NCBI GenBank assembly: GCA_017503785.1
Contig: JAFVSK010000018.1
Span: forward strand, 106,079-170,078
DNA from: Clostridia bacterium
GTDB taxonomy: Bacteria; Bacillota; Clostridia; Oscillospirales; Acutalibacteraceae
DNA: 64,000 nucleotides
Direction of reading: 5' to 3'
Shown: positions 22,576 through 53,169 of the stretch, one piece after another
How the letters are laid out: every line of letters begins with the position of its first letter
Position numbering within the stretch: the first letter of the stretch is position 1
Notes under the pieces: generated by a model
Database searches by the model: none
Seen by the model: the letters and a program-made list of their open reading frames with translations, nothing else
What the model was told of the DNA's origin: nothing
Program-made: the position numbers and the translations under genes

Positions 22576-22611
22576 ACGCCACTCCGTCCGACATAGGACG
22601 GCAAAGGCGTG

Positions 22612-23193
22612 TCAGCCTCTCCCCCAAATGCCGCGCAGCATGGCGCTTTCACTGGCCGTTGCTGTGCTCACCGCCTCGCCTGCCAGCGAGCCGGTGGTGG
22701 CTGCCGCTGCTGTGCGTGCCGCTTCGTGTTCTGCCTCGGTACGGCAGCGCTCGCGGTACTCCCAGCGCAAATAGGCATCCAACAGGGGCACGCCGTCGGC
22801 CACCGCCGTGTGCAACACGGCCTCGGGCAACGCGGCGAACGCACCCACGGTGGGCACCTCGCGGCACAAAGCCTCGTATTCGTCGGCAAGGCGCTGTGTC
22901 AGTGCCTCGTCGGCCGTGGGCGCAGGGCGGCTTTTAAGACCCTCCACCCACTCGTTCAGCGGTTTTCCCTCGGCAGCGGCAAGCGCCTTGAGCGTTTTAA
23001 ACAGCGGCTCCACCGAATCGTACTTCATGCCCATCTGGGCATAGCGCACGGCATCCTCCCGTGATAAGCGGTGTGTCTGCTTGTTAAATTTCACCTCAAG
23101 ACCCTCGTCGGCCGCAGGGGCCGCTGTATCCGCGGCAGCCTCGGTTGACACGTCGGGTTGCGTGTCGGGCGCCGTTGTTACCGGTTCATCCAT
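22612..23193 (-). CDS. Putative phage scaffolding protein
   Basis: 193 aa, acidic/Ala-rich and helical, immediately upstream of the capsid gene. Inferred from position and composition. Confidence 0.4.
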   Translation of the reverse strand: MDEPVTTAPDTQPDVSTEAAADTAAPAADEGLEVKFNKQTHRLSREDAVRYAQMGMKYDSVEPLFKTLKALAAAEGKPLNEWVEGLKSRPAPTADEALTQRLADEYEALCREVPTVGAFAALPEAVLHTAVADGVPLLDAYLRWEYRERCRTEAEHEAARTAAAATTGSLAGEAVSTATASESAMLRGIWGRG

Positions 23194-23196
23194 CGT

Positions 23197-23370
23197 TTAG
23201 TCCTCCTGCTCGGTATAGCCGTCGTAGTTCATGAAATTGCGATACTCGCGCAGCGCCTGCTGACGGCGGCGCTGCTCGGCCTCGTTCGGCGGCGGTGTCG
23301 CGGGCTTGCGCAGCCGCTGCAGCACTGCCATGGCCAAACAGCCAACGATCACTCCCAAAATAAACGTCAT
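23197..23370 (-). CDS. Small membrane protein (57 aa; not in the ORF track)
   Basis: Hand-translated MTFILGVIVGCLAMAVLQRLRKPATPPPNEAEQRRRQQALREYRNFMNYDGYTEQED. AAAGGAG RBS. Fills the gap between TerL and the scaffold gene. Confidence 0.45.
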   Translation of the reverse strand: MTFILGVIVGCLAMAVLQRLRKPATPPPNEAEQRRRQQALREYRNFMNYDGYTEQED

Positions 23371-23385
23371 GTTGTACTCCTTTCG

Positions 23386-24690: not shown

Positions 24691-25043
24691 ATGCGCTCCT
24701 CCCCCACAAACGTCACGCCGCCCGCCTCGGTTTTAAGCTCGGGCTTTTCGCCCTTATCGGCAAAGCCGGCGCGGTTGCGCAGGTAAAACATCCACAGTCC
24801 GTGGGCCTTCGGGTCGGCCTGCAGGGCGCGGTCGATCACCGAGGCGGTACATTCCTGCAGCGCGCTTTTAAGCAGTGCCGCCATGCTGCCGCGACCCTCG
24901 GCGTAGCGCAGCAGCGTTTCGTAGGAAATGCCCAGCGCCGCCGCCAGCGCATCGGCGTGAAACGGCGTATTTGCCGCGGCACACGCCTCCCGACACGCCG
25001 CCACCGCGTGTTCAATGTCCTTTAACGTTCCCAGTTGTTTCAT
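24687..25043 (-). CDS. Putative terminase small subunit
   Basis: 118 aa from MKQLGTL with an HTH-like ALGISYETLLRYAEG. Directly upstream of TerL and overlapping it. Confidence 0.55.
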   Translation of the reverse strand: MKQLGTLKDIEHAVAACREACAAANTPFHADALAAALGISYETLLRYAEGRGSMAALLKSALQECTASVIDRALQADPKAHGLWMFYLRNRAGFADKGEKPELKTEAGGVTFVGEERI

Positions 25044-29492: not shown

Positions 29493-30440
29493 TCAATCGC
29501 AGCAGGGATCGGCCTTTTTGGCTGCCGCGGGAGCATCGGGTGCCGACGGCGTGGTATCGCCCAGGCCGGAGGTCTCCGAGAAGAGCACGTTGGCCTTGGT
29601 CATATCCACCACGTCGCTGGGAACGATGATCTTCGAGGCCTTACCGTCGGCCATGGCCACCAGCGCCTCATACTTTTTCAGCTCCAGCACCGCCGTGTCC
29701 ACGCCCGCCTCTTTCAGCGCACGCAAGCCGTCGGCTTCGGCCTTTTTGGACAGGAAGATCGCGCGGGCCTCACCCTCGGCGCGAGCAATGCGGGCATCGC
29801 GTTCACCCTCGGCGGCCAAGATCATGGCCTGCTTGTCACCCTCGGCGCGGGTGATCGCCGCCGCCTTGTGGCCCTCGGCCTGCAGCAGCGTTTCACGGCG
29901 ATCGCGTTCGGCCTTCATCTGCTTTTCCATGGCGTTTTGGATCTCCGTGGGCGGAATGATATTCTTCAGCTCCACACGGTTTACCTTAATGCCCCACTTA
30001 TCGGTGGCTTCGTCCAAGATCTCGGTCATTTTGGCGTTGATGGTATCACGTGAGGTAAGCGTGCCGTCAAGCTCCAGCTCACCCACGATATTACGCAGCG
30101 TGGTTGCCGCCAGATTGGACAGTGCCGAAATGGGATTCACGGCACCGTAGGCGTACAGCTTGGCATCGTACACCGAATAGTAGATGACGGTGTCGATCTG
30201 CATGGTCACGTTATCCTTGGTGATCACCGGCTGCGGAGGGGAATCCAGCACCTGCTCCTTCAGCGTTACCTTTTTGGAAATACGCTCAAGCAGCGGCACC
30301 TTTACGTGGAAGCCGGCCGACCACGTAGTCTTATACTTACCCAAAAACTCCACCACGTACTCGTGCGCCTGCGGCACGATCTTGGCGTTTGCCAGCACAA
30401 ACACGATCGCAACGACCGCTAAAGCAACGATCCATCCCAT
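29493..30440 (-). CDS. SPFH/Band-7 (stomatin/prohibitin-like) membrane protein
   Basis: N-terminal TM, then KIVPQAHEYVVEFLGKY...QVLDSPPQPVITKDNVTMQIDTVIYY and an EA-rich coiled-coil. The ATG at 30440 follows AAGGAG. Confidence 0.9.
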   Translation of the reverse strand: MGWIVALAVVAIVFVLANAKIVPQAHEYVVEFLGKYKTTWSAGFHVKVPLLERISKKVTLKEQVLDSPPQPVITKDNVTMQIDTVIYYSVYDAKLYAYGAVNPISALSNLAATTLRNIVGELELDGTLTSRDTINAKMTEILDEATDKWGIKVNRVELKNIIPPTEIQNAMEKQMKAERDRRETLLQAEGHKAAAITRAEGDKQAMILAAEGERDARIARAEGEARAIFLSKKAEADGLRALKEAGVDTAVLELKKYEALVAMADGKASKIIVPSDVVDMTKANVLFSETSGLGDTTPSAPDAPAAAKKADPCCD

Positions 30441-30461
30441 AGTTAACACTCCTTACCTTAC

Positions 30462-32108
30462 TTATTTTACGGCGTACACGTCCACGGTACCATCCTCGTT
30501 GTAGGCATACACGTACATCATCTTACCGGGAACCTCCACGCACGAAAAGCTGGAATACCCGTCGAGTATGGTGGTGCCGGAGATCACATCCACCAGTGCG
30601 TACTCGTAGTCGGGCTTATTCACCTTCACGATCCACGGACAGAAGCTGCTGCCCTCGATCGTGAAATCCTTATCCTTCAGCGAGTAGTACGTTGTTTTAT
30701 CGTCCACCTTCTTGCTCATCAGGAACGTAGAATAGGTGTCGAAATCGCAGTCCTCGGTTTCGGTGCCCTGATACAGCACGGTGCCGTCCTTTTTGATCAG
30801 CGTATAGTTGTCGTCGTTTTTCAGGAACCACGCGTTGTTCGTCAGCTTATCCACATACGCGTACTCGTAGGTACCCTCGATGACCACGTTACCCGACAGG
30901 TCGTACAACTTTTGGTCGGCCAGCACCAGCTCGCCGTACAGATTGGGCATCGCGGTAAATTCGGCGCTGACCACTTTGCCCGTGGTATCCATATATACAT
31001 AGGCTCTCACGTCGCCATATTTGGAGGCCAGAATGTAGTCATCTTCGCTTTCCAACGGCACGAAGCCGTCTTCGGTATACGTAAACAGCGTATTGCCGTC
31101 GGAATCGTATACTGCACCGTTCAGCGCATACATACCGTTTTCAAAAAGATCGGCACCCTCCGGCAACGCGGCGCCCTTGTCGTTCACCGTCTTCTGCTGC
31201 TCATCGTCGGTGACGTACCGCACGAAGTTGCCGTACCCCGAAACCGTATACGGCGTGGTGCCCGTCACACCGTCCAGCAGCTTGCCGGCAACCGTGTCGA
31301 ACACGTACCAGTTGCCCTTGAACAGAATATCGCCTTCCTTGGCAGACAGCGAGAACATCGAATCGGTGTAATACATCAGCATTTCGTCTTTGTTCTCGGT
31401 TTGCTCGGTCAGCTCGATCACACGCACGTAGCGGTCGTTGATCTTTTTGATTTCGGCGTACTTGGCAGGAATGATCTCGCGGCCGTTCACGTCCACCAGG
31501 CCGTAGCAGTTGAGCGTGGCCAGGTTATTCATATCGTACGTCACGGGCGCCGTGGTCACCTTAAAGAAGTTCCCCACCACATCGCAGGTGGTGTACAGGC
31601 CACCGGTATCGGATTTGCCGTCAAGCGACACGATATGGTACTTGCCGGAATCATCCTTGTAAAACACACCCACTTTTGACGTGGTGCTCACCGAATCGGC
31701 GATGGTACCGATCTTGGTGGCTGTAAAGCCCGTGGGGAACGCCGTGTAGGCCTCGCCCGACACCGCACCGCCCTGCTGGACGCTCGATTGATCGTTTTGG
31801 TCGTTATCCTGAACGTTGTTTTCTTCATCGTTCAAGCCGCTGTTGGTATCGGTTTGGCCGTAGCCCTCGCTCTGGAACAGTTTTTCGGCCGTAAAGCCAA
31901 TACCCGCCAGCACCAGCAGCACCACCGCAACGATGGCAATGATCAGCCCTGTCTTCTTTTTTTGGGGCGTTTGCTGCACAGGCGGCTGCTGATACACCGG
32001 CGCCGCCGGCTGCGAGGGGGCCTCCTGAACGATAAATTGCGTGCCGCAGTTGGGGCAAAACGCATCGGTTTCCTTTACCTCGGCGTTACAAATAGGACAA
32101 ACCATCAT
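30462..32108 (-). CDS. Zinc-ribbon / single-TM protein with extracytoplasmic WG-type repeats
   Basis: MMVCPICNAEVKETDAFCPNCG, a Pro/Gln linker, a TM helix, then repeats of the YGLVDVNGREIIPAKYAEI type. Confidence 0.75.
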   Translation of the reverse strand: MMVCPICNAEVKETDAFCPNCGTQFIVQEAPSQPAAPVYQQPPVQQTPQKKKTGLIIAIVAVVLLVLAGIGFTAEKLFQSEGYGQTDTNSGLNDEENNVQDNDQNDQSSVQQGGAVSGEAYTAFPTGFTATKIGTIADSVSTTSKVGVFYKDDSGKYHIVSLDGKSDTGGLYTTCDVVGNFFKVTTAPVTYDMNNLATLNCYGLVDVNGREIIPAKYAEIKKINDRYVRVIELTEQTENKDEMLMYYTDSMFSLSAKEGDILFKGNWYVFDTVAGKLLDGVTGTTPYTVSGYGNFVRYVTDDEQQKTVNDKGAALPEGADLFENGMYALNGAVYDSDGNTLFTYTEDGFVPLESEDDYILASKYGDVRAYVYMDTTGKVVSAEFTAMPNLYGELVLADQKLYDLSGNVVIEGTYEYAYVDKLTNNAWFLKNDDNYTLIKKDGTVLYQGTETEDCDFDTYSTFLMSKKVDDKTTYYSLKDKDFTIEGSSFCPWIVKVNKPDYEYALVDVISGTTILDGYSSFSCVEVPGKMMYVYAYNEDGTVDVYAVK

Positions 32109-32129: not shown

Positions 32130-32747
32130 TCAGTTAACAAACAGTGCGCTGCGCTTTTGGAAGTAGGTGCGATTCAAGAGGATCATGGCAATCGAAACAA
32201 CCACCGACGGCACAACGGTTGCCAGATCATTCACACCCGACACCACCGCCACGGCGAGGGTGTACAGCAGCGAAACAGCGGCACCGGCCGCATACAGCAC
32301 GTACAAGCAGGTGGGGCCGTTCTTCTTGTATTTCGCCAAGCGGAAGCGGGTGTACACACCAAAAGCCGACATAGCCAACAGCACCACACCGTAAAACACG
32401 TCCACCGCCTTCAGAGCAGCACCGTACAGACTATACACCTGCTCCGCCGAAACCTGACCGTTGGTTTGCACAAAATAGATGCCGCCGCTAATGTAGTTGA
32501 ACCCGTTCACCACGTTCAACACCGCACCGAGAAACAGCGCAAAGTAGATCAAGAACTTAAACCACGACATCGGCTGCTCCGCCACAGGAGGTGTGGGCGC
32601 TGCCTGCTGCGGCATCGGCTGCACGTAAACCGGAGCCTGCGGCGCCGCGGGCGCCTGCTCCCCTTCCGTAACAAACGGCGTACCGCAGGCGGTGCAAAAC
32701 CGCGCAGCATCCTCCACCACGGCGTTGCAATTGGGACATTGCTTCAT
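32130..32747 (-). CDS. Zinc-ribbon multi-pass membrane protein
   Basis: MKQCPNCNAVVEDAARFCTACG, a Pro/Ala/Gln linker and four predicted TM helices. Confidence 0.7.
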   Translation of the reverse strand: MKQCPNCNAVVEDAARFCTACGTPFVTEGEQAPAAPQAPVYVQPMPQQAAPTPPVAEQPMSWFKFLIYFALFLGAVLNVVNGFNYISGGIYFVQTNGQVSAEQVYSLYGAALKAVDVFYGVVLLAMSAFGVYTRFRLAKYKKNGPTCLYVLYAAGAAVSLLYTLAVAVVSGVNDLATVVPSVVVSIAMILLNRTYFQKRSALFVN

Positions 32748-38800: not shown

Positions 38801-39787
38801 TCTATCAACGGTAATCGTCACCTCATAGCTACGCACTTCAGCAAACTTCGGAATGGCCGAATACTCATTTTCGTCACCCGTGATCGTATACGTAACCTTG
38901 TCATCGGGCAGAAGTGTACCCTTCAAGATTGCCACGGGGAATTTCTCTCCCGTGTACTTGTTGATGGTTTTCTCAATGGAGATACCGGTGATTTCCGCAA
39001 GAGTCACGGACAACTTAACTTCCTTTGTCAGCGCCACGTAACCGGCTTTCGAAAGCTGGACATACACCGTTTTCTCACCAACGTCGGTAATCGAAACAGG
39101 CGTCTCCGTGAAATCAATGTTGTTTTCGCTGTACTTAACAGTATAGCCCTCTGCAGTTACCAAAGCCGTGTGCGCCTCACCGTCGTACACGCCGGTATAG
39201 CCCTCAACACTAACGGAATCCTCCAGCGGATATACCTGCACGCCGTCCTTCATCAGAACGATCTTCTCGCTGGGCGTCACCGCGAAGGTAACTTCTTGCT
39301 CGTACACAGCATCGCCGTCCCAGTCGAACTCATACACTCTGGTGGGCTTGAGTCCCTGAGCGGCAAACGTTTCCAGATCCTCGGGCGAAACAGGGAACCA
39401 CAGCTCAACGTAGCTGCCGTCGCCGTCGGCAGTGTCCGAAAAATCATACGGCGTGCCGTACTCTGCATCGAGCCCCTTCTTAATTCTAAAGCCCGCATTG
39501 TCGGCAATCTCAGTGGGAGCAGTCATCTTAATACCGACCCACCAGCCGGCAGCACGGTTCAAGCCCGCGTCAGCATCGACCCACTGTAACGTAGTCTCTT
39601 CCACCAGCACCGAAACCTTCGAGGGATCCTCGTCAGCCACCGTACCGCCGGTAAAGGTCGTTACCGTGCCGTAGTCCGTGCTTGTCGATGCAAACACGTT
39701 TGCCGGGATCATCGCGATCACCAGCAAAATCGCCAAAGCGATAGCTACCAGGCGGTCGAACGATCGTCTCTTCGCGTAATTTTTCAT
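32825..39787 (-). CDS. Giant (2,320 aa) surface protein with many Ig-like repeat modules, N-terminal signal peptide and C-terminal TM anchor
   Basis: Signal peptide ..IAMIPANVFAST. Recurrent module boundaries of the type (V/I)D.T.P....(V/I) occur at least 12 times. C-terminal WGVIGGVLLLTAAIIFFVIYKKRKKNA. No LPXTG motif seen. Confidence 0.85.
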   Translation of the reverse strand: MKNYAKRRSFDRLVAIALAILLVIAMIPANVFASTSTDYGTVTTFTGGTVADEDPSKVSVLVEETTLQWVDADAGLNRAAGWWVGIKMTAPTEIADNAGFRIKKGLDAEYGTPYDFSDTADGDGSYVELWFPVSPEDLETFAAQGLKPTRVYEFDWDGDAVYEQEVTFAVTPSEKIVLMKDGVQVYPLEDSVSVEGYTGVYDGEAHTALVTAEGYTVKYSENNIDFTETPVSITDVGEKTVYVQLSKAGYVALTKEVKLSVTLAEITGISIEKTINKYTGEKFPVAILKGTLLPDDKVTYTITGDENEYSAIPKFAEVRSYEVTITVDRGDNYRPYVQTVTSEIALGELVLGSLKVEGLEGIYTGNPQKVVTVSGNEGADYTIKYKLGVDGAWQEEIPTVVDAGSYTVFVKVTKANYEDKDVEVAPAQSAAVPFNVYIAKEEQTGFVFENATMPDLPYNSTVINQATGGQSTGEVTYEVTAGQEYVEVDENGNVKAIKAGGTATVTATRAGDNNYKAISTTYVINTIKADQTGFAFTQSEYSVQYGSKTTLTVTALGGQSGGTVTYEVVDGDIASINNTSGALTFNSGKTGPFTVKATLAGGNNYNDITAEATVKVNTNDFEDKYSVPDVPASGWYTIDVDITPAEGYKISNSDLFDATWMDKITIATEGKNTPAAIYLKHEETGYISEAVNVGEIWIDKTAPTELKIEYSQPIVEKIIEAVTFGFYKPSMEVTLTATDDISKLDKFSYKIGEDIEGEIAIEATDDATVSKTFTIPAELNQKAITFTATNKAGLSNVMVGDKVLVVDSLGPKIDIAYKPKDENTTVFFRNADSFVMDFNAATQAYYDGSVDAKISIEEVNFFEGYKYTDEQGAPIGKSVHEVGILVTKTDDQGKVTKIEYLPAEDAEQRFADVNETTVFEWKHEGDKHTLVIPLEDDADYVITVNYADFSTNDSTIKADDALEASTAQYTSKIITVDTVKPEISIEPANGAFYDKNKTVKVTVKEHNFVAELMNLEVTGFEYDKTTGDKVEITEFKQGETVLNYAEYLQKATWTEEATNVWVAEIPFETEANYSIKITGEDLAGNAQKDEVVDTFTVDETAPTDLSITYTPKFENVLWNAVTFGLGKVFGFYKDEVTVTLKATDTTSRLDTFTYKYTVDADAINSGNTGKDDTSVTVNGVTDEVVFTIPAQFRGKVSFVATDKSQNSTEFVDDDIDGVEKTIVVDNIAPEVSVKYTNEFYTNNVDNKLYLANHDTVATIVIEEANFFGAADLVEEKLKVYLTKVYDDETKNPETPTLLKDLTFNKVEGSADVYEAVLPTFNEDADYTLTIEYTDRSGNASSYKKEFTVDTTKPEISIEPANGAFYDKNKTVKVTVKEHNFNATLMNLEVTGFEYDKTTGDEVKITEFKQGETVLNYAEYLQEATWTEEATNVFVTEIPFETEANYSIKITGEDLAGNAQKDEVVDTFTVDKTAPLTGDLDIFVGDKSVKPEDLNEIAFNVFSQTTITVKLSAFDKTSGVASVKYQIVNHDEAFKLEENWVEYDAENGFRIEPNTRVIVYVRVEDKSTNTTIIHSRGIVVDDKAPDGSEEQQPPKITIAPQGANALGFNNSDVTVKLFVQDPKYVGATADLNGYYSGLKEISYQIVAADINAEYTAALMENAELQADVDGEVVRGEYDKLIHSWNGEIVIPASNFNSNHVCVTVTATDNAGNTTITTYKDIQIDITKPKINVSYDNNQADVGSVKYFKADRKATITITERNFNQEKVEIDITNTDGVIPAVVGWTKTEGTGNLDDTTWTATIDYVADGDYTFSVKYTDEAGNANEEVETGNSVQPYEFTIDKTLPVIVVTYDNNDVYNGKYYQRTRVATVTITEHNFAADRVTFDITAQDPLTTVAAPAPTAWVSNGDTHTATITYSADAEYTFDIAMKDLAGNDAADFAKQNFVVDNIDPALEITGVADKSANAGDVIPVVTYSDTNWDENNVTITLTGVNRKGVKISGKSVDDIRAGRTFGQTFTFDNFAEKKEIDDIYTLSVSLTDMAGRTTQKSILFSVNRFGSTYELSEDVQELLKQYYVKNVTSDVVIHEINTDVLTEYNVTLNGVELVKDTDYTVESTGGVGQWKRYTYTVKKELFEAEGEYILVVSSTDKAKNDAFSDVKDAAINFVVDRTPPVVTVSGITEDGRYQTDKQVVTLIPTDDGGALYSLLVYLVDEDGNKLKELVNLVDDKLADELTVGNGAITFTIDKGLYQNVRIECTDRASGNDGKANEYTVTIGNVSINSNAFIVQFWANKTLRWGVIGGVLLLTAAIIFFVIYKKRKKNA
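35367..35750. repeat. Internal 384-bp duplication in the giant gene, copy 2
   Basis: Near-identical to 36483-36866, exactly 1,116 bp away. The encoded 128 aa differ at about 10 positions. Confidence 0.9.
36483..36866. repeat. Internal 384-bp duplication in the giant gene, copy 1
   Basis: See 35367-35750. Encodes TVDTVKPEISIEPANGAFYDKNKTVKVTVKEHNF...DTFTVDETAP. Confidence 0.9.
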
Positions 39788-40203
39788 TCCGCATCTCTCC
39801 TTACTTCTTTAAACTCTGTATAAAAACGTCCGTTTAACAAACAATGCAGCCCCAACGAAAGGATCCACAGGGCCATCAGCGAAAACAGCACCCACAGATG
39901 CCACTGACAGGCTCGACCGATAATAAACACGATCAGCAAACACAACAGGGCACCGTCGGCAACAGCTGCCGGTTGGTTCTTGAAAAACCTCAAAAACCCA
40001 AAGGCTTGGGGCGTGCTTCGATGGATCAGGATCGCCCACAGCACAGTGGTGATCAATCCAAGCCAAAACAAGGCGCCCGAAATGTACAAGAATGCCGGTA
40101 CGGTATCGGCAAGCGGCATCAGCAGCACCGCTGCTGCCACCACCAAAACGCCTGCCAGATACCCACACAACAACCGCTTTTTGTAACGTAAATTACGACT
40201 CAT
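39784..40203 (-). CDS. Small multi-pass membrane protein
   Basis: 139 aa with 4 hydrophobic segments and a GAGGTGA RBS. The stop overlaps the start of the giant gene. Confidence 0.65.
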   Translation of the reverse strand: MSRNLRYKKRLLCGYLAGVLVVAAAVLLMPLADTVPAFLYISGALFWLGLITTVLWAILIHRSTPQAFGFLRFFKNQPAAVADGALLCLLIVFIIGRACQWHLWVLFSLMALWILSLGLHCLLNGRFYTEFKEVRRDAE

Positions 40204-40216
40204 AGCTTACGTCACC

Positions 40217-40675
40217 TCAAACGATGATCTCACTAGAATGTGTATAGGTAATATCACACTCAACCTGGAACGTTCCATCCGCCACAGCGGGCGCAGCCTG
40301 TACAGCTGCCATCGCCTCAGCGGCGCTCAACACCGTGGTTTCGGAAGCGGTTGCATTCAGCGTTGTCGTTTCGGAAGCTTCCATGCTATCGTAGCGGTCT
40401 TGAGCACTGATCTTGGTAGTTTCCTTTGTTTCGTAATCCAACCGCGCCGACGTGGTTTTGTTCGAATAGTCCACCTTGGTAGCGTGCTTTTTGTTATTGC
40501 CCGCTATCGAGCTCTTATTATGGATGTTTTCAACAGCTCTTCGCTTGTTCGTACCCGTAATATCACCGATCACACCGCGAATGTTCAACAGAAAGAAGAT
40601 CAACACCGTGGCGATCAGCATCACGATGGCGAGGACGAGTCCGCCTATGAAAATATAGTTGTATATCTCTTGCAT
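40217..40675 (-). CDS. Single-TM protein with a cytoplasmic tail carrying three ETT motifs
   Basis: 152 aa. N-terminal TM followed by basic residues (positive-inside). KETTKI, SETTTL and SETTVL at aa 84-116. AAGGAGGGG RBS. Confidence 0.65.
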   Translation of the reverse strand: MQEIYNYIFIGGLVLAIVMLIATVLIFFLLNIRGVIGDITGTNKRRAVENIHNKSSIAGNNKKHATKVDYSNKTTSARLDYETKETTKISAQDRYDSMEASETTTLNATASETTVLSAAEAMAAVQAAPAVADGTFQVECDITYTHSSEIIV

Positions 40676-40688: not shown

Positions 40689-42410
40689 TTATTCCTCTTT
40701 TATTGAATTGTACTTATCCAATGCACTGGTAATCTGACTCTGCAACGCCTCAATGTCTTCTTTCAGTGCCGGGATATTCACGGTTCCGGTTTTGGCATAA
40801 ACGTCATTCATCATAGCCGTAACATCGTCTTTTGAAATGTATTTAAAGGTAGTTTTCGGGTCGTTTGACAACAAATAGATTATCTGACTCCAAACACGAA
40901 TCTTTAGATCATTTTCTTTATCTTCCTTGTTGCTCACTTCATCTCGCAGGATCACCAAGGTGTTCCAAAGAGTTTGGTAGGCCTCACTCAACTTTTCGGT
41001 TTGTTTTCCTCTTCCATATTTATTGATTTGGCCTAATGCGGTAGAAATATCATCGTAGTGCTTTGCCATGGCAAGCGACTCATCGGAACTATCAAGAACC
41101 TCTTTAAACCATGTTGACGCCGCACTGTATCGATCACTCGGTACGTTCACATTGCTGTAGAAAAGAATATGCTCGCCGATTTCAAAGCAAACCTTTTGGT
41201 ATTTTGCAAGATCGGCCGTCTTCAGTTCCTCCAGAGGCTTTACGGTAGTGGTATACCCGTTTTTACCGGTTTTGTCGATACCTCGGCGCAGTTTTTCCAG
41301 CAAGCCGCTTTCGCTCGCGTCGTTTTCCAGTACGCCATCTTCAACCAAGCAGTCTAAAAGGCCGTCATAGCCGCTGCCACCCTCGTCATGGTCGCCGATA
41401 TAGGCCTCAGTGCGTGTGGGATCAATCAAAATCGCCTCTACATAATCATCCACGGTTTCAGCGGTATACCACGAAAACTCATAGTTATCCGCCTGAGCAG
41501 CCTGGGCCGAAAAATACCCAAACACCGACGTGGCAGCGAATACCAAGGTTAACGCCGCACTGGTGGCAAACAGCGACAACTTTTTCTTCTGCTGCTTAAT
41601 ATACTCGTCTTCAAAGTCCTTATAATGCTCCAGATCGTACATTAACTCCGCGCACGACTGATAGCGGTCGGCAGGGTTGTTTTGCGTACATTTTAAGATG
41701 ATCTTCTCCAAGCCGGTGGACAGCGCCGGATTGATCTCGGTGATCGGCCGGATCTCATACGGCGGCTGGCTCGGGTTCATGCCCGTCACCAAGTGGTAGA
41801 TCGTGGCACCCAAGCAATAAATATCGGTGCGGGCATCGGTTTGCCCCATGCCGCCGTATTGCTCCGGAGCCGCATAGCCACGCGTACCCAAGCAGGTGGT
41901 ATCCTCCACCTTCGAAGCCTTATGCTCGCGAGCGGTACCGAAGTCGATCAGCGAAATGGTGCCGTCAGGCTTGAGCATCACGTTAGCCGGCTTCATATCA
42001 CGGTAGATGATGGCCGGCTCGCGGGTGTGCAGATACCCCAGCACGTCGCACAGCTGCTTCGACCATTCAATAACGTCTTCCTGCGGCTGCGCGCCGAAAT
42101 CGCGCAGAGCCTTGTCCAGCGAGTTACCCTGAACGTAGTCCATAATAATAATGAACGAATCCGCAGTATCAATAACGTCAACGATACTGGGCAAATGCTT
42201 ATGACTCAGTTTTTTCAGAATATCGGTTTCGGCCACCAAGCCTTGCTTCACCGCTTCAAAATCCAAAACGCCGTCCTTACGCACTTCCTTAACGGCCCAT
42301 TGTTTATTCGCTCTTTCGTTCATGGCGAGGTACACAACGCTCATACCGCCCTGACCGACTTTATTTAATATTTTATATTTTCCGTCGACAAGCGAACCTA
42401 CTTCTAACAT
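40689..42410 (-). CDS. Hanks-type Ser/Thr protein kinase with TM helix and ~270-aa extracytoplasmic domain (not PASTA-like)
   Basis: GQGGMSVVY, WAVKEV, YRDMKPANVML, DFGTAR and GTRGYAAPEQ. TM LSLFATSAALTLVFAATSVFGYF. C-terminal domain unrecognised. Confidence 0.9.
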   Translation of the reverse strand: MLEVGSLVDGKYKILNKVGQGGMSVVYLAMNERANKQWAVKEVRKDGVLDFEAVKQGLVAETDILKKLSHKHLPSIVDVIDTADSFIIIMDYVQGNSLDKALRDFGAQPQEDVIEWSKQLCDVLGYLHTREPAIIYRDMKPANVMLKPDGTISLIDFGTAREHKASKVEDTTCLGTRGYAAPEQYGGMGQTDARTDIYCLGATIYHLVTGMNPSQPPYEIRPITEINPALSTGLEKIILKCTQNNPADRYQSCAELMYDLEHYKDFEDEYIKQQKKKLSLFATSAALTLVFAATSVFGYFSAQAAQADNYEFSWYTAETVDDYVEAILIDPTRTEAYIGDHDEGGSGYDGLLDCLVEDGVLENDASESGLLEKLRRGIDKTGKNGYTTTVKPLEELKTADLAKYQKVCFEIGEHILFYSNVNVPSDRYSAASTWFKEVLDSSDESLAMAKHYDDISTALGQINKYGRGKQTEKLSEAYQTLWNTLVILRDEVSNKEDKENDLKIRVWSQIIYLLSNDPKTTFKYISKDDVTAMMNDVYAKTGTVNIPALKEDIEALQSQITSALDKYNSIKEE

Positions 42411-42421: not shown

Positions 42422-43189
42422 TTAATATGTTCTCACGAGAACGACCGAAATGTTATCGCGCTCTTCCCGCTGCTTGTTCAGATCAATAAGAAATCTGCCG
42501 TTATTCTCCATAGTCGCAGAGTCGGTTAACGCAGCAGGTTGAAATTTCTCATAAATCTCATCAGGAGTAATCTCGTGCCGGAAGCCGTCTGAACACAGCA
42601 TATACACCGCATCGCTTTTGACATCGCCAAAAAACATATCGGGATATACCTCGTCCGATGCGCCAACGCACTGAAGTAACACACTTCTGCGGGGATCCAC
42701 CTTTGCCTCCTCGGCAGTCATTCTACCCAACTGGACCTCGCGGGCCACAAAGGTTTGATCCTCGGTTACCTGATGAAGTGTATCAGAAATCTCATAGGCA
42801 CGGGAGTCACCAACGTTTAAAATGTAATATCGGGTTTGGGTAAGGAGCATTACCACCACGGTGGTACCCAAACGGATGCCCTGACTGGCACCGTAGGCAC
42901 CGATGGTGCTGTTCTGCTTCACCACAATGCTCTCCCACTGACTGCGAATGGTGGCATCCTCAATGGGGGCGGAGCACAAGGCGGGCAGTTCGTTATACAC
43001 CCAATCGTTAAAGGCCGACACCACCGTCGTGCTTGCAACCTCACCCTTGGCAAGGCCGCCCATACCATCGCAAAGAATGGCAAACACCATTTTTCCCTGC
43101 TGCGTATTCAGCACTTTTACCGACAAACCGTCTTGGTTGGTGTCCTTAACATTGCCGATATCCGTATTTGCAGAAATCAAAAATTCCAT
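42422..43189 (-). CDS. PP2C-family Ser/Thr phosphatase
   Basis: TDIGNVKDTNQDG, AILCDGMGG, LNVGDSRAY, LCSDGF and NISVVLV motifs. Confidence 0.9.
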   Translation of the reverse strand: MEFLISANTDIGNVKDTNQDGLSVKVLNTQQGKMVFAILCDGMGGLAKGEVASTTVVSAFNDWVYNELPALCSAPIEDATIRSQWESIVVKQNSTIGAYGASQGIRLGTTVVVMLLTQTRYYILNVGDSRAYEISDTLHQVTEDQTFVAREVQLGRMTAEEAKVDPRRSVLLQCVGASDEVYPDMFFGDVKSDAVYMLCSDGFRHEITPDEIYEKFQPAALTDSATMENNGRFLIDLNKQREERDNISVVLVRTY

Positions 43190-43307: not shown

Positions 43308-45044
43308 TTATTTCTTGTACTCAAACTTCTCGTCGGCCAACAGGATCTTGTCGCCATCTTTCAGTTCAACTTCCTGACCGGCGCGCGCCTTCACACCGTT
43401 AACGAAGGTGCCGTTGGCAGCCTTATTGTCAACAATGTAGGTAACACCGTCACGAACCACAAAGCGAGCATGCACACGGCTGATATTCGTATTGCCGCCC
43501 ACGCAGTAATCAACACTGCTGCGCTCTCTGCCCACCGTGAACTCGGCCGAGCAGATCGGAATACGCTCGTTGTTGCTGGAACGCACCAACGCACCGCCGT
43601 TCACGTTCTGCGACAGAACGGTGGTTTCACCGGCGCTCTGCGACAAAACGGTGGTTTCGCCGGCGCTCTGCGACAGAACGGTGGTTTCACCGGCAGAGGG
43701 GGCTGCAGGCTTCGCAGGAGCAGCCACAGGCTTCACGGCAGCCACCGGAGCGGGAGCAGCCACAGGCTTCGCGGCAACCGGAGCCACGGGAGCAACCGGA
43801 GCAGCCACCGGAGCGGGCTGAGCCTTTTTCTTGTTCATCGAAACGATCAGAATGATAACAACAACGATCACAGCAATCGCCACAACCGCGATGATACCGA
43901 TCATCACGTACTGATTCATAGCAGATTTCTGCTCTTCCTTCGCCAGCGCGTCGATAGCCTCATCCAAAGCCTCGGCAGCATTGTCGATGGTAGCCTGCGA
44001 ATCGGCAGTCAAAGCAGCCTTCGCATCCTTCAGAGCAGCCTTCATCGCCTTATAGGACTCTTCGGTGTAATCCTGAGCGGCATAGCCCTCAGCCTTGGTG
44101 ATCAGGCTCGACAGCTCGCTGGTGTTCAGCGTAGCACCGGTGGTCGTCGTAGTAGTATCGGCGGTCGTCGTTTTGATGGGACCGGGGCCAGCGAACGAAA
44201 TGTTCAGCGCAGTCAGGTAGGTAATCAGCTCTTTACTACTAATAGCCATGAAACGGCTTCCGTCTCCTGCGGCGTTCACGCCCACCACGTTACCGTCTTT
44301 GTCTACCAGCGGGCCGCCGGAGTTGCCACCGGTGATCAGCGCGCTGTTCACTACGCAGTTAACATCTTTGTATTCATGAACTTCATAGTTGTCATCGTAT
44401 GCATCAAACTCTACGTCACCGACCTTGTTCACATTACCACTACTAATGGTAATATCGTCAATGTCGTAGGTGTTTTTAGAATCAATACTTACCAAATCCG
44501 AAGGATAACCGATAGCAAACACCTCGTCGGTCTGCTTCAATTCGTCGCTGTTGCGGATGGCCAGAGGGGTGCGAGCAATCTGCTGGCTCAGTGTCAGCAC
44601 GGCCAGGTCGAGCTCGGGGTTAGCGTTGGTGAGCTTCGCCTTCACGTAAGTACCACGATACAGCATTACGCGCAGCTCCAGCATATCCTTGATCTGAGCC
44701 GCCGTACGGTTGGTGCTGTTTTCGGCGTTGGTGAGCTTTGCCCAGTTAACATACCACTCATCCGGGAAACCGTTCGCCACGTGCTGGCAGGTTACCACGG
44801 TGGTGTCGTTCACCAGGAAGCCGGTGCCATAGTGAAGCGGCACTTCGGTAGCAGTTTCAGGGTCTTTAAACCACACCTGCACCTGTACAACGCCGTTCTT
44901 GGCCTCGGTGACAGCCTGGCCCACTTCGGCAGCATTGGCGCTGAACGCCATACCGAACACCAAGCACATCATCATGCTTACTGCGAGAATCAAGCTAACG
45001 AGCTTTGTTCTCTTTGCTTCGGGATTCTTTGTTTTGAAGAACAT
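43308..45044 (-). CDS. Fusion protein: signal peptide, trypsin-like (S1/HtrA-type) protease, helical stalk, TM helix, Pro/Ala linker, 3x GETTVLSQSA repeat, FHA domain
   Basis: Protease triad context: TCQHVANG, DLAVLTL, GNSGGPLVDKDGNVVGV. TM MIGIIAVVAIAVIVVVIILIV followed by KKK. FHA domain: FTVGRE...ISRVHARF...NGTFVNG. Confidence 0.85.
   Translation of the reverse strand: MFFKTKNPEAKRTKLVSLILAVSMMMCLVFGMAFSANAAEVGQAVTEAKNGVVQVQVWFKDPETATEVPLHYGTGFLVNDTTVVTCQHVANGFPDEWYVNWAKLTNAENSTNRTAAQIKDMLELRVMLYRGTYVKAKLTNANPELDLAVLTLSQQIARTPLAIRNSDELKQTDEVFAIGYPSDLVSIDSKNTYDIDDITISSGNVNKVGDVEFDAYDDNYEVHEYKDVNCVVNSALITGGNSGGPLVDKDGNVVGVNAAGDGSRFMAISSKELITYLTALNISFAGPGPIKTTTADTTTTTTGATLNTSELSSLITKAEGYAAQDYTEESYKAMKAALKDAKAALTADSQATIDNAAEALDEAIDALAKEEQKSAMNQYVMIGIIAVVAIAVIVVVIILIVSMNKKKAQPAPVAAPVAPVAPVAAKPVAAPAPVAAVKPVAAPAKPAAPSAGETTVLSQSAGETTVLSQSAGETTVLSQNVNGGALVRSSNNERIPICSAEFTVGRERSSVDYCVGGNTNISRVHARFVVRDGVTYIVDNKAANGTFVNGVKARAGQEVELKDGDKILLADEKFEYKK
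43608..43697. repeat. 3 x 30-nt tandem repeat encoding (SA)GETTVLSQ
   Basis: CTGCGACAGAACGGTGGTTTCACCGGCGCT repeated three times with 2-3 substitutions. Confidence 0.9.
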
Positions 45045-45145: not shown

Positions 45146-45165
45146 TTCGTAGAACTGATACTTCT
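45146..45165. repeat. Inverted repeat, left arm (IRL)
   Basis: TTCGTAGAACTGATACTTCT, the exact reverse complement of 46585-46604. Confidence 0.95.
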
Positions 45166-45394
45166 AAAAATGAATATATATTCCAAAAAAAGGTATAATA
45201 CACCTACTATTGCGGTTATTATATCACTCGGAACAGGGTTTGTCAATTATTCCCTGCCGGTTTTTGTCGAAAATATTAAGAATTTGTAAATTTTTGCCGT
45301 GTGAGATTTTATGCAGTTAGTATTATTCGCCGTTTGTGGTCAGCGCTGTGGTCGGAGAACTTCTCAATCTATAATCAAGAAAGGATGATTACTT

Positions 45395-46513
45395 ATGTCA
45401 AGGCGCGGGGATCATATTCATAAGCGAAAGGACGGACGTTGGGAGGGCCGCTATCGTATAGGGACCAACATGGACGGAACGGCTCATTATCGCTCAGTAT
45501 ATGCGCACACCTATGCTGACTGTAAAGCCAAACTGACCGAAGCAACCGCCCGGCGACACAGCGAACCGCCTTCGTCAGCAAAGCAACTGCGTTTTCGTGA
45601 AGCCATATATCAGTGGCTTTCTGTCAAGCAAATGCAACTAAAGAGCTCCACCAAGCTAAAATATCGTGACATGATTGAAAAACATATTTTACCGGAACTG
45701 GGAGAACTTCCCTTATCCACTCTTAATGCCGTTGTAATCAGCTCTTTTTTAGAGCGAAAGCTACATTGCGGGGGTGTCAAAAGCAGTACTCCCTTAGCAT
45801 CTTCCTATGTAAGAACCATGGCGATTCTCATCACTTCAGCACTGGAGTTTGCCGCCTCTCTCGGCTGGTGCGTCCCTCTGAAAATTCCACCGTGTCTGCC
45901 AAGCGTTCCTAAGAAAGAACCAACCGTATTAACAAAAATCGAAGAAGAAACTTTGACGGACTTTTTGTTGCAAGAGCATTCTCTAACCGTATTGGGAACT
46001 CTGCTGGCTCTACAAGCAGGCCTGCGCATCGGTGAGGTCTGTGCCCTGCGTTGGTGTGATATTGACCTTGAAAAACGCTTACTACACGTTCGGCATACGC
46101 TATCCCGAACCGTATCAGAAGAAACTTCTAAAACCGTTTTCATTTTAGATCGACCGAAATCACGTTCATCCCACCGTGACGTTCCGTTAACTGCAGCCTT
46201 GCTGCAAAAGCTACATGCAGCGCGCGAAATTCGCCTTTCCGATTACGTTATTTCTGAAACCTCATCGTTTGTTGGTACACGAACATTTGAATACCGCTAT
46301 AAAGCCCTGCTCAAAAGAGCAGGTGTTCGGCCAATTAATTTCCATGCGTTGCGACACACCTACGCTACCCGCTGTGCCGAAGCCGGAATGGATGCCAAGA
46401 TGCTAAGCATGCTGTTGGGGCACGCTTCCGCGACAACAACGTTAAATGTGTATGTACATCCCTCTATGGAAAGTGCATCACAGCAGGTAGAAGCTATTTA
46501 CCGTCTTGCCTGA
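45395..46513 (+). CDS. Tyrosine site-specific recombinase (phage-integrase family)
   Basis: 372 aa. N-terminal KRKDGRWEGRYRIG arm-type motif, GLRIGEVCALRW, HALRHTYATRCAEAG and LGHASATTTLNVYVH (R..H-x-x-R..H..Y). Confidence 0.9.
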   Translation: MSRRGDHIHKRKDGRWEGRYRIGTNMDGTAHYRSVYAHTYADCKAKLTEATARRHSEPPSSAKQLRFREAIYQWLSVKQMQLKSSTKLKYRDMIEKHILPELGELPLSTLNAVVISSFLERKLHCGGVKSSTPLASSYVRTMAILITSALEFAASLGWCVPLKIPPCLPSVPKKEPTVLTKIEEETLTDFLLQEHSLTVLGTLLALQAGLRIGEVCALRWCDIDLEKRLLHVRHTLSRTVSEETSKTVFILDRPKSRSSHRDVPLTAALLQKLHAAREIRLSDYVISETSSFVGTRTFEYRYKALLKRAGVRPINFHALRHTYATRCAEAGMDAKMLSMLLGHASATTTLNVYVHPSMESASQQVEAIYRLA

Positions 46514-46530
46514 ACGGGGTCAAAATAAGG

Positions 46531-46560
46531 GTCACAAAACGGCACAGATCCTTATATAAT
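46531..46560 (+). promoter_or_regulatory. Putative outward-facing promoter just inside IRR
   Basis: GTCACA, 18 nt, TATAAT (46555-46560). It points out of the segment through IRR. Confidence 0.4.
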
Positions 46561-46584
46561 GCAAGGCTCTGCGCTGTTCTTTAC

Positions 46585-46604
46585 AGAAGTATCAGTTCTA
46601 CGAA
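46585..46604. repeat. Inverted repeat, right arm (IRR)
   Basis: AGAAGTATCAGTTCTACGAA. Confidence 0.95.
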
Positions 46605-50667: not shown

Positions 50668-50713
50668 TGAAAGACTACCGGTTTTTATGTATAATAATTT
50701 TGAGGTGATAACA

Positions 50714-51064
50714 TTGGCTGATAGCATTTTAAGAGATAAAGCAAAAGAATTTGCAAAGACTATTGTTTTTCTCTGTCGTGATATGAAAGAAAATTGTAAG
50801 GAATCAGTTTTAATAAACCAATTACTTCGTTCTGCTACTTCAATCGGTGCGAATTTACACGAAGCACAATACGCACAAGGAACAAAGGATTTTATTTCTA
50901 AACTTGAAATAGCACAAAAAGAATGCTACGAAACTGAATATTGGCTTGAACTTCTATTTGAAACAAATTGCATGAATGAAGAAAATTATAAAGCATTACA
51001 AAACGATTGCGGTGCTATCCGCAGAATGTTAATTTCTTCTCTTAAAACAATAAAATCGAAATAG
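50714..51064 (+). CDS. Four-helix-bundle protein (23S rRNA intervening-sequence protein / Avd-like family)
   Basis: ..RDKAKEFAKTIVFLCRDM...LINQLLRSATSIGANLHEAQYAQGTKDFISKLEIAQKECYETEYWLELL is the recognisable family pattern. A TTG start at 50714 after GAGGTGA is preferred (the track ORF starts at 50687). Strongly A/T-rich relative to its surroundings. Confidence 0.75.
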   Translation: MADSILRDKAKEFAKTIVFLCRDMKENCKESVLINQLLRSATSIGANLHEAQYAQGTKDFISKLEIAQKECYETEYWLELLFETNCMNEENYKALQNDCGAIRRMLISSLKTIKSK

Positions 51065-51240: not shown

Positions 51241-53109
51241 TTATCCGATCTCTTTTCCGTCTTTCCAATAGCCGGCATTCACGCGGCCGTCGGCAAAGAT
51301 ATACCGCCCGGGGCCGTTACGCTCACCGTTTTCCCATTGTCCCTCAAAGCGGTCGCCGCTCTTCCAGTAATAGGTGCCACTGCCCTCGCGTTTACCGTTC
51401 ACCCACATGCCGTCGTACACGTCGCCGTCGGCATAGGTCATTTTCCCGCGGCCGTGGCGCCTACCGTTCTTCCAGTCGCCCGTGTACACCTCGCCATCCG
51501 TCCACGTGTACGTGCCATGTCCGCACTTTTGATCATTCACCCACGCGCCGCTATACACGTCGCCGTTCTTCCACGTGTACGTGCCGTGTCCGCTCACTTG
51601 ATCGTTCACCCACTCGCCGTCGTACGCGTCACCGCTTTTATAGGTCATTTTTCCGCGACCGTGACAGCGAAGTCTGCCGTGCTCGGCTTCGTGCAACGCT
51701 CCCTCGTACACACTGCCGGTGCTGTAGCGCACCCGCACGTGGTCCAGCTGCAGCACACCGTTTTGCCAGGTGCCCTCGTAGGTATCCTCACCCTCGTCCA
51801 CGTACACACCGCGGCCGTGGCGCTTACCGTCCTTCCATTCGCCCTCGTAGGTGCAATCGTCGCTCTCCTCCAGCCGTCCAAAGCCGTTGTACGCACCGTT
51901 CTTATAGCTGCCAATGTACGTTGTGCCATCGTCGTATTCCACGCGCGCATGCCCGCACGGCTCATCGTCGCGCCAATCACCGTCGTACACCACTTCACTC
52001 TCGTTACCGTATTGGTCTTTCGTTTTTTTCACGAGCTTGCCCTTGCCGTGGCGCTTATCACTTTTCCAGTCGCCCTCGTAGGTGCTGCTGTCGGCATAGG
52101 TCATCACGCCGCGACCGTGGCGCTCACCATCCTTCCAGTTGCCCTCGTACGCCGCACCGTCATTGTACACCAACCGGCCGAAGCCGTTGCGCTTGCCATT
52201 CTCTGCCATGCCGTCGTAGACAAAGCCGTCGCAAAATACCGCATGTATGTGACCGTGCGCTTTCCACTGCTTCCACTCGCCGTCCACAGAGGCGCCGTTA
52301 TCGTATGTCAGGCGGCCGCGGCCCTCGATCATGTCGTCGCACCAGTCGCCAACGTACGTGCGGTTGCTCCAGCGATACTCGCCGTGGCCGTGGCGCTTGC
52401 CGTCACGCCAGCTGCCGCGGTACACCGAGCCGTCCTTATACGTCATGGTGCCCACGCCGTGCGGCACGTCGCCCACGCGGTCGCCGCTATATTCGCCCGC
52501 CTCGGTAAACACCTGCTCGTCGGACTCCACCACCCCGAACACCTCGCCGATCTGGCGCAGCAGGGTTTCGGTGTGACCCGCCGCTTGATACTTCACGTAG
52601 GTGTGGCTTTGCGGGAACATTTCGGCCAGCACCGTCATTTTTTCCAGATCCACGCAGCCCTCGGCAAACGCTTCGCCCAGCATCTGTTGCGGGCTCTTTT
52701 GGGCCAGCTTCACGCAAAAATACGTTTTCGGCTCGGCGCCCTCCACCGGCTTGCCGTGTTCGTCGCACCCGCGGGTAAACTGCACCTCGCGGTAAATGGC
52801 ACTGCTGCGCAGCATGCTTTCACTCAAATAAAAAATTACGCCGCGGCAGTTGGGATGCTGGATCCACGCCTGCGCATCGTCGTCCCACGCTTCGCCGGCC
52901 GTGAAATGCCGATCGTAGAAAAACCGCACGTTTTGATCGTACAGATCGGCCAAGTCGGCGTACACCTGCTTGTAATCCACGCGCGCATAGCTGATGAACA
53001 CAAAGGTCTTTTTTTCGCGGTCAAACTCGGGCAGGGGCACCTTGTCGCACACATCCAGACTGCTTGCCGCCGCCAGTTGTTTTTTGTATTCTTCGCTGTT
53101 AAACGCCAT
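51241..53109 (-). CDS. TIR-domain protein with a long MORN-repeat array
   Basis: N-terminal [38 protein letters not shown]...[20 protein letters not shown] (TIR_2-like). The C-terminal ~400 aa hold about 16-17 repeats of the type Y.G.W.dGkrHG.G. The ATG at 53109 follows GAGGAGG. Confidence 0.8.
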
Positions 53110-53140
53110 GCTTCGCGCCTCCTCGCAGGGTACTGTATTC

Positions 53141-53169
53141 ATTATAAACGTCCGCTACAGGCTTGTCAA
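53141..53169 (-). promoter_or_regulatory. Consensus sigma-70/sigma-A promoter of the TIR-MORN gene
   Basis: On the minus strand: TTGACA (53169-53164), exactly 17 nt, TATAAT (53146-53141), about 30 nt upstream of the start codon. Confidence 0.7.

Follow-up and report, generated by a model that had tools for sequence, protein, structure and literature searches.

GETTVL repeats in front of the FHA domain of a clostridial HtrA-like membrane protease: a candidate phospho-motif shared within a kinase/phosphatase cassette

The repeat array and the protein that carries it

The stretch of DNA analyzed here, referred to as the window, comprises 64,000 nucleotides (nt) from a Clostridia bacterium of the family Acutalibacteraceae (GenBank assembly GCA_017503785.1, contig JAFVSK010000018.1, positions 106,079 to 170,078). 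Its main subject is a tandem repeat at 43608-43697 on the minus strand, in which three head-to-tail 30-nt units encode SAGETTVLSQ three times in front of the FHA domain of a membrane protease. The triple repeat, already reported in the original prediction for this DNA, was confirmed by reading and translating the sequence and by Tandem Repeats Finder, which places it at 43607-43694 with a period of 30, 2.9 copies, 93% matches and a score of 162. It corresponds to residues 450-479 of the 578-amino-acid (aa) product of the open reading frame (ORF) 43308-45044 (minus strand), and the differences between the units (GGT/GGC, CTG/TTG, AGC/TCT) are all synonymous. The features of this gene are the following:

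43308..45044, minus strand: gene of the 578-aa type-I membrane protein (Pfam, AlphaFold, Foldseek)
44190..44912, minus strand: extracytoplasmic HtrA-like protease domain, residues 45-285, with catalytic H88, D146 and S242 (GNSGGP) conserved
43839..43913, minus strand: transmembrane (TM) helix, residues 378-402, followed by KKK (AlphaFold helix; positive-inside rule read from the sequence)
43608..43697, minus strand: three tandem units with the candidate phospho-acceptor and FHA-binding threonines T454, T464 and T474, each with Leu at +3
43311..43604, minus strand: FHA domain, residues 481-578, with G505-R506, S522-R523-x-H525 and N544-G-T

The encoded protein begins with a signal peptide and continues with the HtrA-like serine protease, a helical (FIVAR-like) region, the TM helix, a Pro/Ala-rich linker, the three GETTVL units and the FHA domain. 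Pfam recognizes Trypsin_2 at residues 73-256 and FHA (PF00498) at residues 503-569, the latter with 55.7 bits against a gathering cut-off of 20.7. In a Foldseek comparison with the PDB the ectodomain matched best the protease domains of HtrA1, HtrA2 and HtrA3, and HtrA of Mycobacterium tuberculosis was found as well; this protease domain dominated the matches, which gave nothing on the motif. Because the TM helix is followed by KKK, the motif array and the FHA domain are assigned to the cytoplasm. The AlphaFold model has a mean pLDDT (predicted local distance difference test) of 83.4, drops below 50 at residues 403-427 and 435-474 and reaches about 96 from residue 481. As modeled, the array forms a disordered stretch on the cytoplasmic side that runs directly into a well-folded FHA domain. 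The distance of about 15 residues to the domain, as given in the original prediction, was loose, since the Pfam envelope begins at residue 503 and in the model the last unit ends 5 residues before the structural domain (beginning at 481, with strand beta-1 at 485-488). T454, T464 and T474 precede beta-1 of the model by 31, 21 and 11 residues, respectively.

Two other explanations of such an array were considered and rejected: a folded beta-meander as the cause of the 10-aa period, because of the pLDDT below 50, and an extracellular T-rich linker or glycosylation sites, because the array follows the TM helix and KKK and precedes a cytoplasmic FHA domain. Elsewhere in the ORFs of the window, E/D-T-x-[VIL]-L occurs only as five scattered single matches.

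Two of the features on which the original prediction had staked its proposal, the residues of the FHA domain that bind phosphothreonine (pThr) and the presence of the motif in orthologues, were both found. The pThr-contact residues G505-R506, S522-R523-V-H525 and N544-G-T align with those of the Vps64, Rv1747 and EmbR FHA domains, and the sequence matches of the domain in the PDB include Rv1747 (6cah, the second-best), OdhI (2kb3), DgcB (6hc0/6hc1) and, weakly, FHA1 of Rad53. A search with the whole protein gave 184 homologues with the same Trypsin_2 and FHA architecture, mostly from uncultured Clostridia (Acutalibacteraceae, Oscillospiraceae, Lachnospiraceae). In 119 of the 120 homologues listed, down to 32% identity, the motif occurs as one to three strict x-T-T-x-L copies at the same place, and apparent losses are degenerate copies (GETSVL, EETGIL, GETVLL, EDTVVL) in which E-T-x-[VIL]-L is kept. 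In an alignment of 107 sequences T474 and L477 are invariant, E473, T475 and V476 are more than 90% conserved, and G505, R523, H525 and N544 of the FHA domain as well as D146 and S242 of the protease are invariant too. An exhaustive HMMER search returned 11,161 matches at E<=1e-3, and in the 138 further representatives that were inspected the motif cores were ETTVL (124), ETSVL (62), ETTLL (19), ETTIL (9) and ETGVL (9).

The spacing is conserved to a similar degree. The distance from Thr to Thr is 10 aa in 320 of 362 cases, and the FHA Gly-Arg follows the last motif Thr at a distance of 29-33 residues in 231 of 258 proteins, exactly 31 in 145 of them; the upstream Pro/Ala linker, judged by eye, varies visibly in length and sequence among the homologues. 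Variants with two FHA domains carry a separate T-x-V-L 10-15 residues ahead of each. Copy number in the FHA protein ranges from 1 to 3 across deep lineages, and only the proximal unit, the one nearest to the FHA domain, is retained in all of them, many orthologues having it alone. It is uniform inside each of ten clusters at 90% identity (85 full-length members), and nine conspecific contigs encode an identical protein. A change of copy number by slippage, which the original prediction had suggested, was hence not seen among close relatives.

Codons give additional information on the history of the array. Codon identity between the units of the window is 8/10, 9/9 and 7/9, where the codon usage of the operon predicts 3.7/10 (P(>=8)=0.006), and this excess points to occasional unit-to-unit conversion or homogenization within a lineage. 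Orthologous units in other genomes use different codons for the same peptide, which indicates purifying selection on the peptide. By these comparisons the motif is of ancient origin and under selection.

FHA domains read pThr, not phosphoserine, and their main specificity comes from the +3 residue. The invariant pattern acidic-T-x-[VIL]-L fits this pT-x-x-L ligand rule, and since the second Thr is often Ser or Gly (the ETSVL and ETGVL cores above), the first Thr is likely the residue read by the FHA domain. Specificity at +3 is also described in PMC6733907, where the tails of DgcB and OdhI have hydrophobic residues at +2/+3 and a nearby Glu. The pattern E(-1)-T-T(+1)-V(+2)-L(+3) is in accordance, as a fit of sequence, with the consensus of M. 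tuberculosis Ser/Thr protein kinases (STPKs), X-acidic(x4)-T-X-(X/V)-large hydrophobic-(P/R)-I, which was derived from phosphoproteomics and is taken here as quoted in PMC6888350.

Spread of the motif and the cassette around it

To look at the motif on its own, one genome per species (185,579 species, 596 Gb) was scanned with a degenerate DNA pattern that describes a pair of ETTVL units at a 10-aa distance. There were 94 loci, where about one chance match is expected, and these were classified with local hidden Markov models and Pfam as follows:

protease-FHA proteins: 31 loci
DUF6382-linker-(ETTVL)2-FHA proteins: 14 loci
FHA proteins truncated by the end of the locus: 9 loci
homologues of the 152-aa single-TM protein encoded in the window: 23 loci
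others: 17 loci

Thus 77 of the 94 double-motif loci (82%) fall into three families: protease-FHA, DUF6382-FHA and the small single-TM proteins. Two of these families contain an FHA domain, and the third is encoded beside a kinase. The DUF6382-FHA proteins of L008, L010, L020, L031 and L052 (L numbers denote the fetched loci) and of nine more loci have two ETTVL units spaced by 10 aa, which follow a long Pro/Gln-rich linker and stand at the same distance from the FHA domain; the corresponding protein of L003 (7140-8024) is without ETTVL units. The 17 others are mostly 5-aa-period ETTVLETTVL runs, T-rich extracellular linkers and very short ORFs. Searching proteins with an artificial composite of the motif gave four candidates and one weak match.

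Three of the 17 are actinobacterial proteins of unrelated families, with [DG]ETTVLP repeated 3-11 times in tails that are disordered and probably cytoplasmic: an LmeA-like protein of Segniliparus rugosus (L021, 5897-7237), a zinc-ribbon membrane protein of a Collinsella sp. (L065, 1921-4707) and a fusion of a major facilitator superfamily protein and thymidylate kinase in Actinocatenispora comari (L090, 307-3567). Their D-D-E-T-T-V-L-P arrays fit the M. tuberculosis STPK consensus, as quoted, almost perfectly, which makes these proteins candidate multi-site kinase substrates.

In the window the protease-FHA gene is followed by a set of genes on the same strand and preceded by an invertible segment. 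The Tse names in the list below are those of secretion components to which the products were likened:

42422..43189, minus strand: PP2C/PPM phosphatase, 255 aa, TseF-like, candidate eraser (Pfam PP2C_2)
40689..42410, minus strand: Hanks-type Ser/Thr kinase, 573 aa, TseD-like, candidate writer (Pfam Pkinase, E=1.5e-44)
40217..40675, minus strand: 152-aa single-TM protein, TseH/TseK-like, with a disordered cytoplasmic tail (alignment, AlphaFold)
40328..40426, minus strand: motif region of the 152-aa protein, with KETTKI (84-89), SETTTL (101-106) and SETTVL (111-116) (translation, alignment)
39784..40203, minus strand: 139-aa polytopic membrane protein, with homologues in 6 of the sequences searched, the window included, and a 157-aa counterpart in L001
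32825..39787, minus strand: TseI-like surface protein of 2320 aa that starts with a signal peptide, contains many Ig-like (Big) domains and is anchored by a C-terminal TM segment (Pfam Big_13, Big_3_x)
45146..46604, no strand: invertible segment with 25-nt inverted repeats at 45146-45170 and 46580-46604
45395..46513, plus strand: tyrosine recombinase gene inside the invertible segment (Pfam)
45246->45218, minus strand: sigma-70 promoter with a 12/12 consensus, TTGACA-17-TGnTATAAT (extended -10), inside the segment and divergent from the recombinase

In the kinase a TM helix is combined with an extracellular domain of about 270 aa, and the VAIK-type Lys, RD, DFG and APE motifs are present, as are DGMGG, GDSR, SDG and DN of the PP2C phosphatase, so that both enzymes of the operon look active from their sequences. 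The activation loop of the kinase, E169-D-T-T-C-L174 (41889..41906, minus strand), is a near copy of G-E-T-T-V-L, and the window shares an identical VEDTTCLGT(R/Q)GYAAPE around it with L001, L003 and L005, whose protease-FHA proteins have 32-66% identity to that of the window. EDTTCL could serve as an autophosphorylation site and as an FHA docking site.

The ETT motifs which the original prediction reported in the 152-aa protein were verified by translation and alignment. From rough residue frequencies (E 6%, T 6%, V+T 13%, L 9%), assumed and not computed from the window, about 4e-4 E-T-T-[VT]-L sites are expected by chance in a protein of this length, and two are seen. AlphaFold predicts a confident N-terminal TM helix and a tail with pLDDT 42-61 that docks nowhere. 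In the alignment of the family T86, K88, T103 and L106 are invariant; the family keeps the TM helix and an invariant E-T86-x-K88-I...QDRYD segment (again T-x-x-I), and its members possess 0-6 ETTVL-like units with a spacing of 9-11 aa. The C-terminal DFxVExDITYVHSxEVI(R) (40217-40258 in the window, minus strand) is also strongly conserved in the family and is modeled with low confidence.

The order protease-FHA, PP2C, kinase (about 570 aa), small TM protein or proteins and giant protein is kept in L001, L003 and L005, at 66%, 40% and 32% identity, respectively. Giant counterparts of 1783-2506 aa follow the kinase in all three loci, and PP2C adjoins the protease-FHA gene there. Among the window and the fetched loci searched, homologues of PP2C were found in 64 sequences and those of the kinase in 62 (window included), the kinase being syntenic in all cassettes examined. 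The 139-aa protein is present in only part of the cassettes.

These genes resemble accessory components of type VII secretion systems (T7SS). Garrett et al. 2024 (PMC11217815) defined T7SSd, T7SSe and T7SSj with accessory components that include the kinase TseD with an extracellular domain, the PPM phosphatase TseF, the giant Ig-like TsdI/TseI with a signal peptide and C-terminal TM helix, the single-TM TseH/TseK with short unstructured cytoplasmic regions and the DUF6382-FHA protein TseJ, and they suggest control by Thr phosphorylation. The cassette of the window, likened to these descriptions by architecture and gene order, corresponds to the TseD/TseF/TseH-TseK/TseI set; by architecture, it is a match to the kinase-side half of T7SSe. 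The published description mentions neither a trypsin-like or HtrA-like protease-FHA component nor an ETTVL motif or other phospho-acceptor sites, and the window cassette stands apart from a T7SS core. The cassette of L003/L004 stands back to back with the genes of WXG100, an EssC-like ATPase, YukD, AAA_31 and DUF6382-FHA, and a gene for DUF6382-(ETTVL)2-FHA adjoins that of an EssC-type ATPase in L020, L050 and L052, with YukD also present in the latter two. In one genome a single contig carries the T7SS core (L052) as well as the protease-FHA cassette (L062), with 270 kb between them.

The segment upstream of the operon has the characteristics of an inverton: repeats flank a promoter, a recombinase is enclosed and both orientations occur across genomes. 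The core of the inverted repeats, TAGAACT-N5-TTCT, is conserved in five genomes (the window, L001, L009, L014 and L047). The promoter faces the operon in the window and in L014, in L001 the segment is flipped and the promoter faces away, and the orientation of the recombinase relative to the operon is split across 11 loci. The segment is probably a phase-variable ON/OFF switch of the cassette, which in the window appears to be in the ON state. The end of a conspecific contig (L103, SRR12529278_186418) falls on the proximal inverted repeat, 131 nt upstream of the start codon of the protease-FHA gene, and a break at this repeat is expected if both orientations coexist in that sample.

Possible roles of the units

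As the motif recurs in two partner families of the kinase/phosphatase cassette, it is probably a phosphorylation and FHA docking site that wires the machine. With moderate confidence we regard the GETTVL units as phospho-sites and FHA ligands in a network that links the proteins of the cassette. The units would be short linear phospho-motifs in an intrinsically disordered cytoplasmic linker; we infer that in each E-T-x-[VIL]-L unit the membrane Hanks kinase of the cassette adds phosphate to the first Thr and that the PP2C takes it off again. The resulting pT-x-x-L would be read by the protease's own FHA domain, either in cis, in the case of the distal units, or in trans from one molecule to another, and also by the FHA domain of the DUF6382-FHA (TseJ-like) protein where this is present, and the units on the 152-aa protein would turn it into a phospho-dependent partner. 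In this way the array may act as a multivalent, reversible pThr/FHA connector which assembles or gates a membrane complex of the extracytoplasmic HtrA-like protease, the kinase, the small TM protein and the giant Ig-like protein, possibly a T7SSe-like envelope module. That the units are substrates of the co-encoded enzymes and ligands of the FHA domain was also the proposal of the original prediction, and this part has gained support of a comparative kind from the FHA residues, the conservation, the consensus fit and the scan. The T7SSe-like cassette, the motif in DUF6382-FHA proteins and the invertible promoter were no part of that prediction.

Several observations weigh against this interpretation. 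No T7SS ATPase, WXG100, YukD or DUF6382-FHA gene was found in the 64-kb window by tblastn with the proteins of L003, so the link to secretion rests on other genomes, although the separation of 270 kb between core and cassette seen elsewhere suggests that a T7SS core may lie at another place in this organism's genome. The full-length AlphaFold model docks no unit on the FHA domain; this is expected for an unphosphorylated sequence and is thus uninformative on binding. A few members of the protease-FHA family (P0196, P0272) lack the motif, some clades have [GA]TTVL, i.e. are without Glu, and the phosphate-binding Ser of the FHA domain, kept in the window protein, is replaced by Gly in 57 of 258 relatives. 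The coupling of motif and FHA domain, as far as these sequences tell, is consequently not absolute; the -1 residue is Glu in 86% of proteins with the Ser and in 65% of those with the Gly, a weak shift which is not decisive. Distant homologues of the small TM protein (137 aa in L003, 157 aa in L005) keep both ends with the motifs degenerate. Finally, literature searches gave no paper that mentions the motif.

Known FHA systems offer several points of comparison. In GarA and OdhI an E-T-T motif likewise lies in a disordered segment on the N-terminal side of the FHA domain, about 30 residues away in the case of the ETTS of GarA; it is reportedly phosphorylated by Hanks kinases, after which the pThr binds the protein's own FHA domain. 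Both come from Actinobacteria, however, and are soluble and about 140-160 aa long, with a single ETTS motif and a phosphate-independent inhibition of enzymes of the tricarboxylic acid cycle and glutamate metabolism, whereas the window encodes a 578-aa clostridial membrane protease in a secretion/envelope cassette, its motif being G-E-T-T-V-L, repeated (1-3 units in the family, at a 10-aa period) and with an invariant +3 Leu. Membership in the GarA/OdhI family was rejected on size, solubility, taxon and context, and no 2-oxoglutarate dehydrogenase, glutamate dehydrogenase or glutamate synthase gene was found in the neighborhood. Rv1747 is similar in being a membrane protein whose FHA domains are said to bind pThr sites in its own disordered linker, with multivalent clustering controlled by kinase and PstP. 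It differs in its two FHA domains, in two dispersed sites with no periodic array, in its ABC transporter effector and in its actinobacterial host. In Chk2/Rad53 an SQ/TQ cluster directly on the N-terminal side of the FHA domain drives oligomerization in trans; the arrangement of phospho-acceptor Thr directly before the domain is shared, but the system is eukaryotic, its sites are TQ sites of phosphatidylinositol 3-kinase-related kinases and its output is kinase activation.

The FHA termini lie opposite the peptide-binding loops. Since the proximal unit is only 11 residues from beta-1, binding in trans (in dimers, in chains or to other FHA proteins) is for this unit at least as likely as binding in cis, as judged from the model. 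For the distal units binding in cis is possible by analogy, their spacings resembling those of GarA and of DgcB, the FHA-GGDEF protein of Bdellovibrio. In DgcB the FHA ligand likewise comes from the protein's own N-terminal tail (E-K-pT-S-I-V), with T14 located 18 residues before the start of the FHA domain at V32, and both intra- and intermolecular binding of the tail were considered (PMC6733907). Unlike the window protein, DgcB is a soluble enzyme with a single site, no repeat arrays and no co-encoded cassette of kinase, PP2C and partners. The Thr-phosphorylation pathway of type VI secretion systems (T6SS; PpkA/PppA/Fha1, and TssL-Fha in Agrobacterium), as summarised in PMC11217815, is similar in principle, since a membrane Hanks kinase and a PP2C control the assembly of a secretion machine there through pThr-FHA binding; it is Gram-negative, has a single phospho-site in unrelated proteins and lacks motif arrays.

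An alternative to the network, put forward in the original prediction, is an intramolecular switch of the GarA/OdhI type, in which phosphorylated units would fold onto their own FHA domain and inhibit it and the units of the small TM protein would compete. The resemblance of the E-T-T motif to the ETTS of GarA, the position of T464 and T454 at 21 and 31 residues from beta-1, comparable to DgcB and GarA, and the occurrence of motifs on both the FHA protein and its neighbor would all suit such a switch. We nevertheless consider it rather unlikely: the only universally retained unit is the proximal one, for which binding in cis is sterically doubtful and which in many orthologues has no companion, there is no sign of a phospho-independent FHA target like that of GarA, and the coexistence of up to three FHA-bearing and three motif-bearing families favors a network over a single cis switch. 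It might also be argued that the units dock to the kinase, the PP2C or another partner, for instance by beta-strand addition, independently of phosphorylation, their proximity to the FHA domain being purely architectural. The fixed 10-aa period and the fixed FHA distance could indeed reflect a structural register, the replacement of Glu in some clades and of the phosphate-binding Ser by Gly in some FHA domains is in line with this, and GarA-type FHA domains, going by the title of Nott et al. 2009, reportedly bind partners without phosphate as well. But the invariant residues are exactly the Thr and the +3 Leu, the array has no predicted structure, the motif fits the Hanks-kinase consensus in its quoted form and is found almost exclusively together with an FHA domain or a kinase/PP2C cassette, so this explanation seems improbable to us.

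The triple repeat might, on the other hand, be a neutral or contingency product of slippage, either a low-complexity linker or a phase-variable switch of copy number. This has in its favor that the units are tandem at the DNA level, that they share an excess of codons (which is in accordance with unit-to-unit conversion) and that deep lineages differ in copy number, from 1 to 3 units in the FHA protein and from 0 to 6 in the small one. That orthologues substitute the motif freely is contradicted, however, by a peptide conserved with different codons and by within-window differences that are all synonymous; copy number is uniform among the close relatives described above, and three 30-nt units are a poor substrate for slippage. 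We think it very improbable that the array arose in this manner.

A wider version of the phospho-docking network can be put forward only tentatively, and as a whole it is doubtful. According to it a phospho-assembly system not recognised before would use ETTVL arrays as its common 'zip code': one kinase/PP2C pair would write and erase pThr arrays on the protease-FHA protein, TseJ and the single-TM adaptor, and several FHA domains would read them, by which a T7SSe-type machine spanning the envelope would be polymerised or gated. Valency and threshold would be set by the length of the array (1-7 units at about 10-aa spacing), the recombinase-carrying invertible promoter would turn the whole module ON or OFF, and in function the protease-FHA protein would correspond to the mycosin MycP of actinobacterial T7SSa, but under direct phospho-control.

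Within the reach of our literature searches the motif with its periodic arrays, its spread over three families and the HtrA-like protease-FHA component appear to be new; in a 2008 protease survey FHA-FHA-Tryp in Bacteroides is the sole such entry. The invertible promoter and the protease-FHA protein would be two unreported features of T7SSe-type systems, whose regulation by phosphorylation has so far only been speculated on, and the motif sits in three families tied to T7SSe. Very few bacterial kinase-substrate motifs are known (PMC6888350), and Ser/Thr kinase signalling of gut Clostridia is almost uncharted. Here a sharply defined candidate phospho-motif is accompanied by its likely writer, eraser and readers, encoded side by side, so that peptides together with one kinase domain and one FHA domain would suffice for a direct test.

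Other genes of the window

Directly downstream of the gene for the giant surface protein lie two genes for membrane proteins with an N-terminal zinc ribbon (30462-32108 and 32130-32747, both on the minus strand), one of which has WG-containing beta repeats outside the membrane, and after this pair comes an SPFH/Band 7 protein (29493-30449). Prophage-like genes occupy approximately 17000-24700 (minus strand), with a large terminase at 23386-24690, a weak SU10-portal-like match at 19424-21196 and unannotated ORFs around them. Upstream of the cassette and the invertible segment, a gene of the 23S rRNA intervening-sequence protein family (50687-51064, plus strand) and a large dCache-HAMP-GGDEF-EAL-PAS signalling protein (58560-62303, minus strand) are both unrelated to the array. 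Between them a 633-aa protein (51241-53142, minus strand) combines a TIR_2-like N-terminus, below the Pfam cut-off, with at least 9 MORN repeats, and a 69-nt tandem repeat (51485-51619) lies inside its MORN region.

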